This document shows positions 7,529-50,926 of a stretch of 64,000 nucleotides of DNA, in pieces. The notes below the pieces were generated by a model that saw nothing but the letters and a program-made list of their open reading frames with translations, was not told where the DNA came from and made no database searches. A program made the translations under genes and the position numbers. Each line of letters opens with the position of its first letter. Within the stretch, counting starts at the first letter, position 1. The stretch is taken from the IMG/VR virus record IMGVR_UViG_2529292913_000008. The stretch is one strand, 5' to 3'. The DNA is from a virus. Its lineage: Duplodnaviria; Heunggongvirae; Uroviricota; Caudoviricetes.

Positions 7529-8853
7529 GAGATCCCCTCATAATTTCCCCAAAGCGTAACCATGTGTGAATAAATTTTGAGCTAGTAGGGTTGCAGCCAC
7601 GAGTAAGTCTTCCCTTGTTATTGTGTAGCCAGAATGCCGCAAAACTTCCATGCCTAAGCGAACTGTTGAGAGTACGTTTCGATTTCTGACTGTGTTAGCC
7701 TGGAAGTGCTTGTCCCAACCTTGTTTCTGAGCATGAACGCCCGCAAGCCAACATGTTAGTTGAAGCATCAGGGCGATTAGCAGCATGATATCAAAACGCT
7801 CTGAGCTGCTCGTTCGGCTATGGCGTAGGCCTAGTCCGTAGGCAGGACTTTTCAAGTCTCGGAAGGTTTCTTCAATCTGCATTCGCTTCGAATAGATATT
7901 AACAAGTTGTTTGGGTGTTCGAATTTCAACAGGTAAGTTAGTTGCTAGAACCCATGGCTCCTTTGCCGACGCTGAGTAGATTTTAGGTGACGGGTGGTGA
8001 CAATGAGTCCGTGTCGAGCGCTGATTTTTTCGGCCTTTAGAGCGAGATTTATACAATAGAATTTGGCATGAGATTGGATTGCTTTTAGTCAGCCTCTTAT
8101 AGCCTAAAGTCTTTGAGTGACTAGATGACATATCATGTAAGTTGCTGATAGGTTTCCAGTTTTCCGCTCCTAGGTCTGCATATTGTACTTTTCCTCTTAC
8201 TCGACTTAACCAGTACCAACCCAGCTTCTCAACGGATTTATACCATGGCACTTTAAAGCCAGCATCACTGACAATGAGCGGTGTGGTGTTACTCGGTAGA
8301 ATGCTCGCAAGGTCGGCTAGAAATTGGTCATGAGCTTTCTTTGAACATTGCTCTGAAAGCGGGAACGCTTTCTCATAAAGAGTAACAGAACGACCGTGTA
8401 GTGCGACTGAAGCTCGCAATACCATAAGTCGTTTTTGCTCACGAATATCAGACCAGTCAACAAGTACAATGGGCATCGTATTGCCCGAACAGATAAAGCT
8501 AGCATGCCAACGGTATACAGCGAGTCGCTCTTTGTGGAGGTGACGATTACCTAACAATCGGTCGATTCGTTTGATGTTATGTTTTGTTCTCGCTTTGGTT
8601 GGCAGGTTACGGCCAAGTTCGGTAAGAGTGAGAGTTTTACAGTCAAGTAATGCGTGGCAAGCCAACGTTAAGCTGTTGAGTCGTTTTAAGTGTAATTCGG
8701 GGCAGAATTGGTAAAGAGAGTCGTGTAAAATATCGAGTTCGCACATCTTGTTGTCTGATTATTGATTTTTCGCGAAACCATTTGATCATATGACAAGATG
8801 TGTATCCACCTTAACTTAATGATTTTTACCAAAATCATTAGGGGATTCATCAG
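7525..8853 (-). mobile_element. IS10 (IS4 family), 1329 bp, with 9-bp target-site duplication AGCCCAGCA
   Basis: Ends CTGAGAGATCCCCTCATAATTTCCCC (7525) and CTGATGAATCCCCTAATGATTTTGG (reverse complement, ending 8853); direct repeats agcccagca at 7516-7524 and 8854-8862. Confidence 0.9.
7538..8746 (-). CDS. IS10 transposase
   Basis: 402 aa, full length, recognised as the IS10/Tn10 transposase sequence. Confidence 0.95.
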   Translation of the reverse strand: MCELDILHDSLYQFCPELHLKRLNSLTLACHALLDCKTLTLTELGRNLPTKARTKHNIKRIDRLLGNRHLHKERLAVYRWHASFICSGNTMPIVLVDWSDIREQKRLMVLRASVALHGRSVTLYEKAFPLSEQCSKKAHDQFLADLASILPSNTTPLIVSDAGFKVPWYKSVEKLGWYWLSRVRGKVQYADLGAENWKPISNLHDMSSSHSKTLGYKRLTKSNPISCQILLYKSRSKGRKNQRSTRTHCHHPSPKIYSASAKEPWVLATNLPVEIRTPKQLVNIYSKRMQIEETFRDLKSPAYGLGLRHSRTSSSERFDIMLLIALMLQLTCWLAGVHAQKQGWDKHFQANTVRNRNVLSTVRLGMEVLRHSGYTITREDLLVAATLLAQNLFTHGYALGKL

Positions 8854-38483: not shown

Positions 38484-38876
38484 ATGTCTGATAAAGTAAC
38501 AGTAAAGCAAACTATCAACAAAGCGACTTCAATCTACAAAATTGAGCAAATCACTGTTGGCAAGCCAGGATCTGAACAATACCGTCGTGCTTTCGAGCTT
38601 GCCGATCAGCTTGGTTTAAAACACCCGGATTGCATTGAGCATGTATTTCCGACCTATGCTGATGAGCAATGTACTCATGTTCTTACCGAAGAGGATTTTT
38701 TCTGCACTGAAGAACGAGAAGGAGTTGATCGCTGCATTGGTGTGATTTGCTCTTCAGTGAGTTATGAGTTATTCCCTAATGTCCATGAAGATGGTGGTGT
38801 TGGATACCAATTCCTGTACGAAGGCGATGAGCTTAAATGTTATGAACATGGTCTTCTTATCGAGAGCGTAGAATAA
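38484..38876 (+). CDS. Hypothetical protein (upfA-position)
   Basis: 130-aa ORF immediately upstream of oriR. Confidence 0.5.
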   Translation: MSDKVTVKQTINKATSIYKIEQITVGKPGSEQYRRAFELADQLGLKHPDCIEHVFPTYADEQCTHVLTEEDFFCTEEREGVDRCIGVICSSVSYELFPNVHEDGGVGYQFLYEGDELKCYEHGLLIESVE

Positions 38877-38914
38877 TACGGCTTCCTTCCAACCGGCTTT
38901 ATTGGCCGGTTTAT

Positions 38915-39134
38915 TCAACTTATCCACAGCATAGATCCAATAAACAGATCCTAAAGAGAACCTAGGAAGATCCAAAGAAGATCCCGGATCGCTGTAAGCC
39001 GCGCCATTTCTGGCCTGAAATGGGATCAACATTGACTATACGCGATTTTATGTTGACTGTGCACGATTTATTGTTGACTGCACGCGATTTATTGTTGACT
39101 ATACGCGACAGAAACATTGACTGTACGCGATTTT
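38915..39134. repeat. oriR/incC: DnaA box, GATC cluster and five 19-bp RepA iterons
   Basis: TTATCCACA at 38921-38929; five AGATCC-type GATC sites; iterons (A/G)TTGACTNNNCGCGA at 39031, 39052, 39073, 39094 and 39116 (21-bp spacing). Confidence 0.8.
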
Positions 39135-39210
39135 AGAGCCTGACTATTCACAGTTGTTGATAACTGCAATCCAGATGACGCCAGGCCGCGCCACATATGG
39201 AGAAACCACG

Positions 39211-40095
39211 ATGCCGGAAGAAAATAAAGGCTTCCTTAGCGTTGAAGAAGTTGCAGGAAATACAGGAGAAATCCACAGCCTGAAACCCAATAACAATAGC
39301 ACTATACAACCCATCGCTTTGTTGCGCTTAGGTGTGTTTGTGCCAACCTTAAAATCTACCAATGTGGCACTACGTCGCGGATCGTCAGTTACTACAAACA
39401 CAACGAACGCAACCGAAGAACTATCAAGCCTCAAAATTGTTGAGCAGGAAGGCTATGAGGGAATTGAAATACATGGTCCACGCCTGGATATGGATACTGA
39501 TTTTAAGGTGTGGGTGGGCATAACCTCCGCGTTGTTTGACTACGCACCTGATGATGACGGCATAATCACCCTGCCATTCTCCGAGTTTGCCGATCGATGC
39601 GGCTATCCACGTAAGCGCCTTTCAAAGGCGTTCCGTAAAAGTATTGATGACTCTCTGACACGCATTCAGCAGACAGTTGTCAAATTCCGCTTCCCGGCGG
39701 CAAAAGGTCATCTCAATAACATTAACGTCAACTTGTTGGCATATAGCAGCCTGAATACCGAGCTTGATGTTATCGAGATCCAGCCGCAGAAACAGCTATC
39801 TGAACTTTACTATGTTGACTATAAGCGAATCCTGAAGCTGAAGATGCTGGATAAGCTCGGGCGCAAAGAGACGGCCAAGGTGCTGTATACATTCTTTGAG
39901 GCTCTACCCGCCAACCCGGCACCTGTCAGCATTGAGCGCCTTAGAGCAAGGCTTAATCTCAAATCATCCGTTAGCGTGCAAAATAGCGTTATCAGAAAAG
40001 CTATGAAAGATTTGGAAGCTATTGAATATCTTAAATTTTCAGAGATAAAAAACGGCAGGAAAATCGGCTTCCAGATCCATAAGCGCAATCCATAA
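39211..40095 (+). CDS. repA: Plasmid replication initiator RepA (P1 family, divergent)
   Basis: 294 aa from the ATG at 39211 (GGAG RBS); flanked by iteron arrays on both sides. Confidence 0.7.
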   Translation: MPEENKGFLSVEEVAGNTGEIHSLKPNNNSTIQPIALLRLGVFVPTLKSTNVALRRGSSVTTNTTNATEELSSLKIVEQEGYEGIEIHGPRLDMDTDFKVWVGITSALFDYAPDDDGIITLPFSEFADRCGYPRKRLSKAFRKSIDDSLTRIQQTVVKFRFPAAKGHLNNINVNLLAYSSLNTELDVIEIQPQKQLSELYYVDYKRILKLKMLDKLGRKETAKVLYTFFEALPANPAPVSIERLRARLNLKSSVSVQNSVIRKAMKDLEAIEYLKFSEIKNGRKIGFQIHKRNP

Positions 40096-40096
40096 T

Positions 40097-40356
40097 ATTG
40101 ACTATATGCGATAGCGAGAAGTTGACTATAGGCGACATTCGTTGACGCTGGTGGATTTTTGCTGGCGTCAATATTCTGCAAGTCGCTATTGAGATGGCTT
40201 TTAGGGTCATTTCATCGCGTATAGTCAACGTTTCTCCCGACAATATCTTACATAGTCGATTTTTGGTGGAGTTAAATCGACTACAGTCAACTTTTGACTG
40301 TAGTCACATCGCGCATAGTCAACTATTCACATTAACTTTCGCGCATAGTCAACATT
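40097..40356. repeat. incA copy-control iteron array (about nine iterons, both orientations)
   Basis: Repeated TTGACTATANGCGA and TCGCGNATAGTCAA motifs directly downstream of repA. Confidence 0.75.
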
Positions 40357-40387
40357 TGCGCGGTTCTCATCAAGCAGTGGTATTGAT

Positions 40388-40915
40388 ATGCAAGAAGAGA
40401 AACAACACTACCTCTACGTTCTGGTGCCGGAGAACGGAGATACTTTTAAAATCGGCATTTCATGTGGTCCATTGGCACGGTTTAAAGGGCTACAAGTGAG
40501 TCCCGATTTTGCGCTTTCACGGGTCTATCGTGGTACGCGTTTGGCAATGGTTAATCTTGAGCGGGCTTTACACGCAACCTTTTTCCCCTGGAATGCGCCG
40601 TGGGAGAAAAGCGCAGGTGGCGGGCATACTGAATGGTTTACACGAGAGTGTCTTGATAAGGTTTTGGCTCATATCGAATATCTAAATGATATGTGGGGAG
40701 GGATTCTCGAGCGCATTAAGTCGAATGATTTACTTCAGCGTCCAGTAGATGCTGCTTGCTCTTTCGAAAAAGAGCTGGATGTTACTTCTATCGTGACTTT
40801 CAAAGATGACGCAGGAATGAGGGACGTGGCTTATGTCTCCATATCTGGCTATGAACCGGACGCGATCCGCGCTCAGTGTGAATTGCTGAAAGCAATGTTT
40901 ATGCTTCGGACTTAA
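40388..40915 (+). CDS. T5orf172/GIY-YIG-like domain protein
   Basis: 175 aa; N-terminal YLYVLVPENGDTFKIGIS...TEWF resembles the T5orf172 motif set; sits between incA and parA. Confidence 0.5.
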   Translation: MQEEKQHYLYVLVPENGDTFKIGISCGPLARFKGLQVSPDFALSRVYRGTRLAMVNLERALHATFFPWNAPWEKSAGGGHTEWFTRECLDKVLAHIEYLNDMWGGILERIKSNDLLQRPVDAACSFEKELDVTSIVTFKDDAGMRDVAYVSISGYEPDAIRAQCELLKAMFMLRT

Positions 40916-40936
40916 TATCCCTGGGATACAGGGCGG

Positions 40937-41197
40937 GTGTGCTTCCCTATGGAAGAGTTAACCGCCACCATTGATTCCCAGCTTTACCACGATAATCCAG
41001 AGAAGTTTTTTAGCCTTTTAGCCGGTAATGGGCTTAACTGTGTGTCCGGGCTGGGGCGAAGTAGAATCCAACATGCCTCGCTCTTCGGTCCCATCTTTTA
41101 CGATCGACATGGGTACTTTGAGGCTGAACTTCCGGCGCTTACGCGTGCTATAGATACTATCGATTTCGAACGATTATTCGCTGCTCTTAGCAAATAA
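40937..41197 (+). CDS. Hypothetical small protein
   Basis: 86-aa ORF following the T5orf172-like gene, with a terminator right after. Confidence 0.4.
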   Translation: MCFPMEELTATIDSQLYHDNPEKFFSLLAGNGLNCVSGLGRSRIQHASLFGPIFYDRHGYFEAELPALTRAIDTIDFERLFAALSK

Positions 41198-41204
41198 CAC
41201 TGAT

Positions 41205-41226
41205 GCCCCTGAACGGGGCTTTTTTG
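41205..41226 (+). terminator. Rho-independent terminator
   Basis: gcccctgaacggggc followed by a T-run. Confidence 0.65.
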
Positions 41227-41365
41227 TGCCCTCCTTGTAACTCTCAATCGTGCAAAATGAACCAAACACGCAGAGAATGCTATGTACAAGCATCTACGCA
41301 TACATTATTATTTTATGCAGCTTTTTTAATTAAATTCAAAAATACAGCATAAAGGATGACTTTCG

Positions 41366-42562
41366 ATGAGTGATTCCAGCCAGCTTCACAAGGTTGCTCA
41401 AAGAGCAAATAGAATGCTCAATGTTCTGACTGAACAAGTACAGTTGCAAAAGGATGAGCTACACGCGAACGAGTTTTACCAGGTCTATGCGAAAGCGGCA
41501 CTGGCAAAATTGCCTCTACTGACTCGAGCGAACGTTGACTATGCTGTAAGTGAAATGGAAGAAAAGGGTTATGTTTTCGATAAGCGCCCTGCTGGCTCTT
41601 CAATGAAATATGCGATGTCAATTCAGAACATCATTGACATATATGAACATCGCGGAGTGCCAAAATACCGGGATCGCTACAGCGAAGCGTATGTGATTTT
41701 CATCTCCAATCTTAAAGGCGGTGTGTCAAAAACTGTATCGACGGTTTCTCTGGCGCATGCAATGCGTGCTCACCCTCATCTTCTGATGGAAGATTTAAGG
41801 ATTCTGGTTATTGACCTTGATCCGCAATCTTCAGCAACGATGTTTTTAAGCCATAAACACTCTATTGGTATCGTAAACGCAACATCTGCACAGGCTATGT
41901 TGCAGAATGTAAGCCGTGAAGAGCTGTTAGAGGAGTTTATTGTTCCTTCTGTTGTACCTGGGGTTGACGTTATGCCTGCGTCGATTGACGATGCCTTTAT
42001 TGCATCCGATTGGAGAGAGCTGTGCAATGAGCATCTACCGGGTCAGAACATCCATGCTGTCCTGAAAGAAAATGTGATTGATAAGCTGAAGAGCGATTAT
42101 GATTTTATCCTCGTTGATAGTGGTCCTCACCTTGACGCCTTCCTGAAAAATGCTTTGGCCTCGGCCAATATACTGTTTACACCTCTGCCGCCAGCAACTG
42201 TCGATTTCCACTCATCGCTTAAATACGTTGCCCGCCTTCCTGAGTTGGTGAAACTCATTTCGGATGAAGGCTGCGAGTGCCAGCTTGCGACTAACATTGG
42301 TTTTATGTCCAAGTTGAGTAACAAGGCAGATCATAAGTATTGCCATAGCCTGGCTAAAGAAGTGTTCGGTGGGGATATGCTCGATGTCGTCCTCCCTCGC
42401 CTTGACGGTTTTGAACGTTGCGGCGAGTCTTTTGACACTGTTATTTCAGCTAACCCGGCAACGTATGTTGGTAGTGCTGATGCATTGAAGAACGCGCGAA
42501 TTGCCGCGGAAGATTTTGCTAAAGCAGTTTTTGACCGTATTGAATTTATCAGATCTAACTGA
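41366..42562 (+). CDS. parA: Partition ATPase ParA
   Basis: 398 aa with deviant Walker A KGGVSKT and an N-terminal HTH extension; same length as P1 ParA. Confidence 0.85.
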   Translation: MSDSSQLHKVAQRANRMLNVLTEQVQLQKDELHANEFYQVYAKAALAKLPLLTRANVDYAVSEMEEKGYVFDKRPAGSSMKYAMSIQNIIDIYEHRGVPKYRDRYSEAYVIFISNLKGGVSKTVSTVSLAHAMRAHPHLLMEDLRILVIDLDPQSSATMFLSHKHSIGIVNATSAQAMLQNVSREELLEEFIVPSVVPGVDVMPASIDDAFIASDWRELCNEHLPGQNIHAVLKENVIDKLKSDYDFILVDSGPHLDAFLKNALASANILFTPLPPATVDFHSSLKYVARLPELVKLISDEGCECQLATNIGFMSKLSNKADHKYCHSLAKEVFGGDMLDVVLPRLDGFERCGESFDTVISANPATYVGSADALKNARIAAEDFAKAVFDRIEFIRSN

Positions 42563-49228: not shown

Positions 49229-50567
49229 CATAAGCGCTAACTTAAGGGTTGAACCATCTGAAGAATGCGACGCCTCGGTGCCTCGTTAAGACGATGCCTC
49301 GCGTTCTTCAATTGCGTTTTGTAGGCTGTCAGGGATACTGTCCCACGAATGGCCACCTGTAAGCTCCAGATGACCATTTTTGTTATTCTCCACAACGAGT
49401 TAGTTCTTCTTTTCGGATCCGGCACTTCTGGGGGGGAAATCCAGCGATGGCTGGATTATGTCGTCAATTAAAAATGCGGCGAGTAGATTAGCAAATATCC
49501 ACGCTTTCGCGAGTTCAGGTTCCTTTGCACGCAAAGCATCCAGGTGCAGCAAACTTTTGAGCCGCTTAAAAGCCAGTTCAATTTGCCATCGCAGACGGTA
49601 ACAATCAGCCACTTGCTCTGCTGAATATTCATCTTCCGGTAATGATGTTAGCAATAGCACATGGCCCGCTGCTTCCAGCGTTTCCGCCTGAACTACTCGT
49701 CCTTTTCGACGATTCTCGCTGAGCAGTCGGGTTTTACTGATTAATGCTTTTTCGGGAGGAAGTGATACGGCAATGAGACGTGCCGGAAAGGGAGCTCCGG
49801 CTTTTTTATTACCTGAATTGCCTATCATTACAGTGGTTTCACCGTTCTTACCGCAATCCAGCCCGCGCAGAAAACCCATCATGTCAAAGCGCATTCCTTC
49901 TGCAGTTAACCAGCGCAATCCTCGCCAGTGAACCCGGACGATATAATCAGCTTCTCCAAAAGCAAGTGAGCGGATACATTCGGGACGCGAACCGAATCCC
50001 CGGTCAGCAATGCGTATCTCGTCTGCCGTTTGCGCAAATCGGTCCAGCCGTTCAGCGTCTCTGCTGTCGGTTAGCTCAAAATCAGTGAACTGACAGGTAT
50101 GAGGATCATATCCCATATGTAGTCGCCATTCAGCGCTGCCGCCCCCGGGCGCACTGATTGCTGTTCCATCGACAAGACGCAATCTCTTTCCGCTTGTACA
50201 ACCCGTAACTGCGGCGCGTACAGCAAGTGTTTGTGCGGCAAGTATGCCAAACCAGTCGGCGGCATTCCGCAGCCGCTTCAGGAGAGCCACGTCAGATAAT
50301 GTTGCAACGTCATGGAGCTGAGCCCATGCAGTGACTTCACGTAATGACATCCCCCCGGGGCCGTAAGCCAGCCCCAGACGTAGCAGAGTTGCAGCATCAC
50401 GAATTTCGCGGCGGCGGGTTAGAGCCCCGGCATTACGTGCCGAAGTATCCAGTTCTTCGGGCTTACCAATATGGGCCAGAATTGCTGACCAGTTATCGTG
50501 AGAGTAATTCATCGGCACGTTAAATCATATCAGGCGTAATACCACAACCCTTAAGTTAGCGCTTATG
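49229..50567 (-). mobile_element. IS186 (IS4 family), 1339 bp, with 10-bp target-site duplication GGATCTCTCC
   Basis: Terminal inverted repeats CATAAGCGCTAACTTAAGGGTTG at 49229 and its reverse complement ending at 50567; identical flanks at 49219-49228 and 50568-50577. Confidence 0.85.
49400..50518 (-). CDS. IS186 transposase
   Basis: 372 aa, recognised as the IS186 transposase (MPMNYSHDNWSAILAH...). Confidence 0.9.
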   Translation of the reverse strand: MPMNYSHDNWSAILAHIGKPEELDTSARNAGALTRRREIRDAATLLRLGLAYGPGGMSLREVTAWAQLHDVATLSDVALLKRLRNAADWFGILAAQTLAVRAAVTGCTSGKRLRLVDGTAISAPGGGSAEWRLHMGYDPHTCQFTDFELTDSRDAERLDRFAQTADEIRIADRGFGSRPECIRSLAFGEADYIVRVHWRGLRWLTAEGMRFDMMGFLRGLDCGKNGETTVMIGNSGNKKAGAPFPARLIAVSLPPEKALISKTRLLSENRRKGRVVQAETLEAAGHVLLLTSLPEDEYSAEQVADCYRLRWQIELAFKRLKSLLHLDALRAKEPELAKAWIFANLLAAFLIDDIIQPSLDFPPRSAGSEKKN

Positions 50568-50589
50568 GGATCTCTCCCCGCCAGGTCTC

Positions 50590-50745
50590 TTACCTTTCAG
50601 ATTCGTAGGCTGTGAAGACAGTGACCTCCGTCTGGCCGGTTCGGATTCGTACCTCGCAGAGGTCTTTCCTCGTTACCAGTGCCGTCACAATGACGGTTAA
50701 ACAGATGACGATCAGAGCGATTAATATCGCTTTATGCTGCTTCAT
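50590..50745 (-). CDS. Hok/Gef-family membrane toxin
   Basis: 51 aa, MKQHKAILIALIVICLTVIVTALVTRKDLCEVRIRTGQTEVTVFTAYESER, near-identical in pattern to E. coli HokC/Gef; below the ORF-track cutoff. Confidence 0.75.
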   Translation of the reverse strand: MKQHKAILIALIVICLTVIVTALVTRKDLCEVRIRTGQTEVTVFTAYESER

Positions 50746-50926
50746 AGCCTGCTTCTCCTTGACCTTTTGGTCGGTAAGAGGCTAATCTACGTATGCTAAG
50801 CATAGATATGGCCTCAGATTAATGTTAAGCGTCTTGCAGGACGCGTAATGTTATCTGGGGCTTTCTTCTATCTGCTTTTCGGGTAATGCCTGAAGCAGAT
50901 AGCCTCAAGCACCCGCAACGATTGTA

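Follow-up and report, generated by a model that had tools for sequence, protein, structure and literature searches.

The window analyzed here is a stretch of 64,000 nucleotides from a virus of the Caudoviricetes (IMG/VR record IMGVR_UViG_2529292913_000008) and the locus under study lies in its plasmid-maintenance region, where a replicon module precedes parA and parB. The module and the elements that border it are arranged as follows:

39015 to 41263, + strand: replicon module without homology to reference P1 (blastn against P1), made up of iterons, repA, iterons, a nuclease-like gene and a terminator
39030 to 39130, + strand: five incC-like iterons upstream of repA, with core TTGACTnnnCGCGA and a spacing of 21-22 nt (repeat search)
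39211 to 40095, + strand: repA, coding for a p0111-type initiator of the Rep3 family (Pfam Rep3_C, Rep3_N), 294 aa from the ATG used in RefSeq relatives
40096 to 40358, no strand assigned: incA-like iterons, two of them direct (40096-40111, 40120-40135) and four inverted (40213-40358) (repeat search)
41283 to 41311, + strand: par promoter (Ppar), a promoter-like site matching the annotated Ppar of P1 (L001 4014-4042) and the first P1-homologous feature past the module
41366 to 42562, + strand: parA, 99.7% identical to P1 ParA at the protein level, with parB downstream

The homology between the window and P1 ends at 39014, where the incC iterons begin, and restarts at 41264 (41264-41270), about 38 nt beyond the T-run of the terminator (blastn). 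Between these limits the window RepA, encoded by a CDS annotated with 885 nt in relatives, is 41% identical to P1 RepA, and outside them ParA and ParB are each 99.7% identical to their P1 counterparts. The module is the p0111-type replicon known from SJ46, RCS47 and JL22, and the nuclease-like gene is its last element, located between the last incA iteron and the par promoter. A preliminary description of this DNA had read the locus as a cassette of two genes between incA and parA, possibly an insertion in the replicon. Its placement agrees with the end of the incA iterons at 40358 and the start of parA at 41366; the notion of an insertion had to be given up, as the whole of 39015-41263 is a different module that replaces that of P1. 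An iteron-like 16-mer, TGTTGACTATAAGCGA, occurs within the repA coding sequence (39813-39828) and is 94% identical to the reference iteron.

The features of the nuclease-like gene, as found in the window, are:

40388 to 40915, + strand: upstream ORF, 175 aa, ATG start
40937 to 41197, + strand: downstream ORF, 86 aa, GTG start
40388 to 41197, + strand: single T5orf172 plus winged-helix gene, 269 codons in relatives (alignment with RCS47 and 673R5; residues 1-269 of PHROG 2876)
40388 to 40702, + strand: N-terminal T5orf172/GIY-YIG-like nuclease domain, residues ~1-105, intact in the window
40769 to 41194, + strand: C-terminal domain of predicted winged-helix fold, residues 128-269, divided by the stop
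40913 to 40915, + strand: premature stop TAA, Lys176 to stop (AAA in relatives)
41205 to 41225, + strand: intrinsic-terminator-like hairpin (GCCCC-TGAAC-GGGGC) followed by TTTTTT, closing the gene before the par promoter

Both ORFs share one frame and the TAA at 40913-40915 is their sole separator; in the alignment with the window, codon 176 of RCS47 and 673R5 is AAA (Lys). RCS47 carries one annotated CDS of 810 nt for a protein of 269 aa, named "GIY-YIG nuclease family protein" as is the gene in RefSeq, and the 86-aa ORF aligns to positions 184-269 of the 269-position profile PHROG 2876 (function unknown). Because of the shared frame, the single stop, the 269-aa CDS in relatives and the full-length agreement with PHROG 2876, comparison at the sequence level establishes that 40388-41197 is one gene and not two. 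As judged from these alignments, the window copy is a nonsense-truncated allele of an already annotated, functionally unstudied gene. The same gene occurs in SJ46, RCS47, JL22 (gp57) and about 400 p0111-type plasmids at 97.5-100% nucleotide identity; the PHROG 2876 and RefSeq entries represent this same gene, from which the window differs by the rare K176* allele. A literature search found no functional study of it, and its database entries are annotations only.

The ORFs, the T5orf172-like N-terminus and the terminator that the preliminary description had reported were all recovered (ORF list, PF10544 match and hairpin at 41205-41225, respectively); the 86-aa "partner" proved to be the last third of the protein with that N-terminus, severed from it by a nonsense mutation. 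A true operon of a 175-aa nuclease and an 86-aa partner is very improbable. Both ORFs are open in the window, a weak AGGG stands ahead of the GTG at 40937 and RefSeq sometimes calls the second piece a "hypothetical protein", against which stand the common frame, the one stop that is Lys in relatives, the position of the split within one predicted domain and the absence of the 86-aa product as such from a collection of 15 billion proteins. The terminator hairpin is identical in RCS47 and 673R5 and a comparable one lies downstream of the homologue in locus L010 (see below), and no terminator was detected after the homologues in L004 or L009. A sigma-70-like site was not found on the + strand between 40096 and 40388, and the gene may be transcribed from the repA promoter.

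The frequency of the stop was determined with a 55-nt megablast query centered on the T of the TAA, which counts this allele because seeding is possible only when that base matches. The TAA allele was detected in 3 of 401 gene-carrying PLSDB plasmids and in 7 of the 412 gene-carrying genomes among 5,426 complete E. coli genomes, leaving ~98% of gene copies without the stop of the window. Truncated products are recorded on 264 and 139 contigs, the former figure being that of the exact 175-aa product, and NZ_MN510446.1 and NZ_CP122822.1 are 100% identical to the window across 839 nt. From its counts in plasmids, genomes and contigs, K176* is therefore a real circulating allele and not a sequencing error, yet a rare one. 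Degeneration of the gene by stops and frameshifts is recurrent: other independent nonsense alleles are W72* in NZ_CP069714 and L93* plus W103* in NZ_CP062827, examples that were chosen for their split-looking annotation and so show recurrence, not frequency, and the copy of phage 673R5 has two frameshifts. The disrupted alleles in L019 and L020 (2601-3410 in each) have amber codons produced by single-base changes, TGG to TAG at W72 and W103 and TTG to TAG at L93; L019 carries two stops and is therefore a decaying pseudogene. RefSeq at times labels the second piece of such split copies "hypothetical protein". One carrier of the allele identical to that of the window, the 139-kb plasmid pSvP1_F (NZ_MN510446.1, L005), is typed IncFIB/IncHI1B and has an IS91 transposase ~550 nt upstream of repA, which suggests a P1-like replicon module housed in a larger hybrid plasmid.

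Residues 8-85 of the 175-aa product match Pfam T5orf172 (PF10544) with 28.7 bits (E 2e-6; curated cut-off, 20 bits), so that the domain similarity proposed in the preliminary description is borne out by profile search. The product also matches the endonuclease profile PHROG 681 (E 5.5e-9) and Pfam MUG113 (E 0.016). Of the features of the T5orf172/GIY-YIG superfamily, the profile match, the GIY-YIG alpha/beta fold and the residues of the catalytic motifs (first Tyr, Arg and metal-binding Glu) are present. Y10, K21, G23, R31, E58, H62, E82, W83 and F84 are invariant across 15 relatives, in which the Tyr/Arg/Glu pattern (Y10, R31, E82) is kept; the equivalence of these three residues to those of I-TevI and Odn derives from the motif pattern and not from superposition. 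The predicted model of the full-length protein, built on a four-sequence alignment and with a mean pLDDT of 73, consists of two domains joined by a disordered linker (residues 115-127), and on this model the intact protein is shown as an N-terminal T5orf172 (GIY-YIG-superfamily) nuclease domain followed by a predicted C-terminal winged-helix fold. Matches of the C-terminal fold include WH1 domains of Rep families and an oriT-binding protein. Sequence search returned no meaningful relative of solved structure, and the C-terminal domain compared with the cognate RepA family gave nothing by profile-profile alignment (hhalign, probability 0.2) or BLASTP. In the model Lys176 comes directly after a long helix (157-173) and ahead of the helix-turn-wing core; therefore, the truncated product retains the nuclease domain and drops most of the presumed DNA-recognition module. 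The nuclease domain of the window stays joined to only the first part of the C-terminal domain, and targeted activity is most likely lost in this copy.

P1-like phage-plasmids, which disseminate ESBL and mcr resistance genes, are typed by two replicon types, IncY and p0111. Besides repA, the nuclease-like gene is the sole coding difference between the IncY and p0111 modules. Reference P1 has an unrelated non-coding spacer of ~190 nt from the last incA iteron to Ppar, with no CDS between incA and parA, and neither the ORFs of the window nor any remnant of the nuclease-like gene was found in that spacer (tblastn, short-word blastn), which upholds the earlier statement that parA follows the iterons directly in P1. 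PLSDB plasmids show strictly two states: the junction from the gene to Ppar is present in about 400 and the repA-incA-gene junction in 394, and the empty spacer of P1 type is present in 144-145, which match the window only from 41264 on. In the 545 PLSDB plasmids that share this par region, every copy of the gene accompanies a p0111-type repA and its pairing with an IncY repA does not occur; nothing thus indicates that the gene has moved alone into the empty site of P1.

A search of 1.84 billion representative proteins gave a single end-to-end match by score, P0004, encoded in locus L004. Two further proteins, P0010 from Salmonella and P0011 from a faecal metagenome, were recognized by alignment, as they align over the whole length and have C-terminal motifs in common. 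About 70 additional proteins of the representative set share the T5orf172 domain alone, two profile searches of a set of 5.8e9 proteins added no full-length members, and a scan of genome contigs gave just one near-identical locus and one unrelated match to the N-terminal domain. The four full-length members all occupy one slot of P1-like phage-plasmids, between repA/incA and parA and in the same orientation, the homologues of the three other P1-like lineages being divergent (25-44% identity). Homologues fill the slot across lineages; thus, reference P1 is a variant without the gene there. Three types of RepA neighbor these genes. The window and L004 have the p0111 type (84% identity between the two), L009 has an IncY-like RepA that shares 83% identity with P1 RepA, and L010 has a third type, at 41-48% identity to the rest. 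The slot measures 213 nt of unrelated spacer in P1 and 1017 nt including the gene in L009, which is also IncY-like, so that presence and absence at one locus between homologous flanks are seen in P1 versus L009 as well as in PLSDB.

Some details of these loci were recorded apart from the above. In L009 (6813-8882 on a 93-kb contig of Salmonella enterica GCA_007478465.1) the T5orf172 plus winged-helix gene of the incA-parA slot codes for P0010, of 293 aa, and this variant has no copy in PLSDB. Residues 1-41 of P0004 (L004 8001-8123) are translated incA iterons with a repeated AYSQH; its start was called too far upstream, and in the sequence alignment the true start falls opposite Met1 of the window protein. 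The distant N-domain relatives P0014, P0123 and P0124 were considered for a link to replicons and rejected, sitting among small ORFs of mobile elements with no rep neighbors. The metagenome contigs L011, L013 and L015 code for relatives of 296-302 aa that share only the N-terminal T5orf172 domain and lie in long same-strand runs of small ORFs; GmrSD_N, Band_7, SNase and DUF3085 genes are among their neighbors, an arrangement that recalls the early or leading regions of mobile elements.

The exchange of the module is also apparent between L004 and L009, whose ParA and ParB are 99.7 and 98% identical but whose RepA and nuclease proteins are only 41 and 28% identical. The non-homologous block extends from the incC iterons to just beyond the nuclease gene, the same limits as between the window and P1, and these limits indicate that repA, its iterons and the nuclease-like gene are exchanged as a unit. 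In both swap comparisons the nuclease-side junction is sharp, identity being 98.3% up to the breakpoint, and on the far (oriR) side identity falls to 87-91% across the last 300 nt; no co-conversion gradient was seen in the identity of the flanks (regions compared: window 38617-39014 and 41264-41563; L004 6503-6830 and 9020-9319).

The gene evolves faster than its neighbors. Across seven p0111-type sequences pN/pS was 0.30 for the nuclease gene, 0.01 for repA, 0.00 for parA and 0.07 for parB. Comparison of L004 with the window gives 44% identity for the nuclease protein, 84% for RepA and 89% for ParA, and the C-terminal half of the nuclease protein diverges faster than the N-terminal half (33 versus 64% identity). 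The gene is best read as dispensable for plasmid maintenance. Some purifying selection on it is evident from these rates, and the intact ORF is conserved over a long divergence.

The interpretation preferred here, which is held tentatively and with somewhat less than even confidence, is that the gene codes for a selfish or competitive site-specific endonuclease of the phage homing-endonuclease type, linked to the replicon and acting on related P1-like genomes. Site choice on the DNA would fall to the winged-helix domain and cutting to the T5orf172 domain, and the nuclease would take no part in the replication or partition of its own plasmid. Its targets would be related P1-like genomes without the module, or with a rival module, encountered at co-residence or co-infection, and the gene, along with the repA and iterons next to it, would spread when the broken DNA is repaired on the template of the genome that carries the nuclease. 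We infer catalysis, the choice of target and conversion. An endonuclease of this type is proposed because the genomic signatures match the set used for the putative T5orf172 homing endonuclease genes of vibriophage ICP1 and other phages, for which homing is likewise unproven (Barth, Dunham and Seed, 2023; PMC10448857). These signatures are a T5orf172 domain with a separate presumed DNA-binding domain, a free-standing position beside the essential genes repA and parA, variable presence among close relatives, frequent breakage by stops or frameshifts, and a place at the edge of the exchanged segment, observed here in two independent comparisons. Unlike the ICP1-type genes, whose DNA-binding parts are CapR, DUF723 or DUF4397 zinc-finger domains, the gene of the window has a presumed DNA-binding half of predicted winged-helix fold without Pfam family, is single-copy with no paralogues, is never apart from repA and resides in the plasmid-maintenance region of a temperate phage-plasmid.

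Phage T4 Seg proteins and I-TevI have an N-terminal catalytic domain of GIY-YIG type, a linker and a C-terminal DNA-binding domain, and the free-standing GIY-YIG homing endonucleases of T4 promote the preferential inheritance of flanking markers in mixed infections. The protein described here resembles them in the order of nuclease domain, linker and C-terminal domain, and differs from them by belonging to the T5orf172 subfamily, with Lys replacing the second motif Tyr, and by another fold of the presumed DNA-binding domain. The only biochemically tested T5orf172 nuclease is the origin-directed nuclease Odn (ICP1 gp88), whose cleavage activity depends on the Glu equivalent to E82 (Barth et al., 2021; PMC8263062). 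Odn and the protein described here have in common a T5orf172 nuclease domain with a conserved catalytic Glu, and would share a functional link to a replicon and its iterons and a specificity that follows the replicon type. The DNA-binding domain of Odn is N-terminal and clearly homologous (42% identity) to the RepA_N of its target, unlike the domain described here, which is C-terminal and has no detectable sequence relation to the neighboring RepA; furthermore, the gene lies beside its own replicon and not in a predator of that replicon. A chimera of Odn type with the neighboring RepA was considered and rejected, as BLASTP and hhalign of the C-terminal domain were negative and no DNA-binding domain homologous to the initiator was found.

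Several observations speak against homing. The gene is never separated from a p0111-type repA in the 545 PLSDB plasmids, and among 1.84 billion representative proteins the full-length family, single-copy, occurs in just one slot of four lineages, which resembles a long-resident rather than a spreading gene. A position at the edge is expected of any gene in a non-homologous block with conserved flanks, and the identity of these flanks is without a co-conversion gradient. Movement independent of the neighbors was not observed either, 394 of about 400 copies keeping the repA(p0111)-incA junction. The mobile, nuclease-like character given to the locus in the preliminary description consequently stands as regards the closest known kind of gene and falls as regards independent movement. 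The unusual property of this T5orf172 homing-endonuclease-like gene is its conserved replicon-linked position in P1-like phage-plasmids.

The main rival explanation, which is unlikely, is a domesticated replicon accessory that would regulate copy number, handcuffing or the expression of par by binding the par operator or the incA iterons of its own module, or an Odn-like weapon that would cut the origin iterons of a rival replicon type. It accords with the swapping of the gene together with repA and with the unchanging slot and orientation next to incA that the gene has in all four lineages, across three types of RepA. The Rep-family WH1 domains and the oriT-binding protein among the fold matches point in the same direction, and precedents are Odn, which combines a T5orf172 domain with a RepA-derived DNA-binding domain and cuts iterons (PMC8263062), and the T5orf172-related repressor CapR (PMC10448857). 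Such a role is difficult to reconcile with the function of the IncY replicon of P1 and of 144 PLSDB plasmids without the gene, with nonsense alleles that persist on complete plasmids and with a pN/pS ~30 times that of repA; the probability of 0.2 for the C-terminal domain against the cognate RepA family and the domain order opposite to that of Odn also argue against it. A functionless relic, i.e., an old decaying insertion that survives solely by tight linkage to repA, would explain the recurrent nonsense and frameshift alleles and the elevated pN/pS. It is quite improbable in view of a pN/pS of 0.30, still well below 1, of the persistence in four lineages, 25-44% identical, of full-length ORFs whose catalytic-motif residues are invariant, and of the ~98% of copies free of the stop of the window.

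T5orf172/Mug113-type domains occur in conflict systems, and the preliminary description had accordingly considered defense cargo. As a stand-alone anti-phage or anti-defense nuclease, the gene would be accessory cargo in host-phage conflict, a role that fits the MUG113 match (E 0.016), the fast evolution, the variable presence and the distant N-domain relatives among small mobile-element genes adjoining GmrSD_N-type genes. This explanation is improbable: PADLOC gave no match at E up to 1 (P0001, P0004), NCBIfam gave none, partner genes and neighboring defense genes are absent from the module, the gene sits in the plasmid-maintenance core and not in the variable cargo regions of P1-like elements, and its linkage to repA is strict.

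Returning to the selfish or competitive endonuclease, an active site-specific nuclease at this locus could drive the replacement of replicon modules and competition among co-resident phage-plasmids, and would extend to plasmid maintenance regions the idea, developed in lytic phages, that nuclease genes mark the boundaries of exchange. A more specific proposal, rather unlikely, is that the incA-Ppar slot holds a fast-diversifying replicon-linked nuclease which cuts rival P1-like elements at the origin iterons or at the empty site. If so, the rival would be eliminated or converted to the replicon type of the nuclease, which would account for the module swaps (IncY, p0111 and others) on a conserved P1 backbone and for the p0111-type elements now outnumbering IncY.

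Other features of the window were noted outside the replicon module. A complete type I restriction-modification operon is present at 10676-16735 (+ strand), coding for HsdM (N6_Mtase), HsdS (Methylase_S) and HsdR (HSDR_N, SWI2_SNF2, EcoR124_C); reference P1 has the type III EcoP1 res/mod genes in its stead. The region 7538-8808, with a DDE transposase ORF of 402 aa (- strand), the end of which overlaps a match to the RNA-OUT antisense RNA (8739-8808, 98.8 bits), probably represents an IS10-type insertion sequence. A second DDE transposase (49400-50518) adjoins a strong match to the sok antitoxin RNA (50740-50914, 114.9 bits) on the - strand, and the region 49400-50914 suggests a hok/sok-type addiction module that an insertion sequence may have introduced or disrupted.
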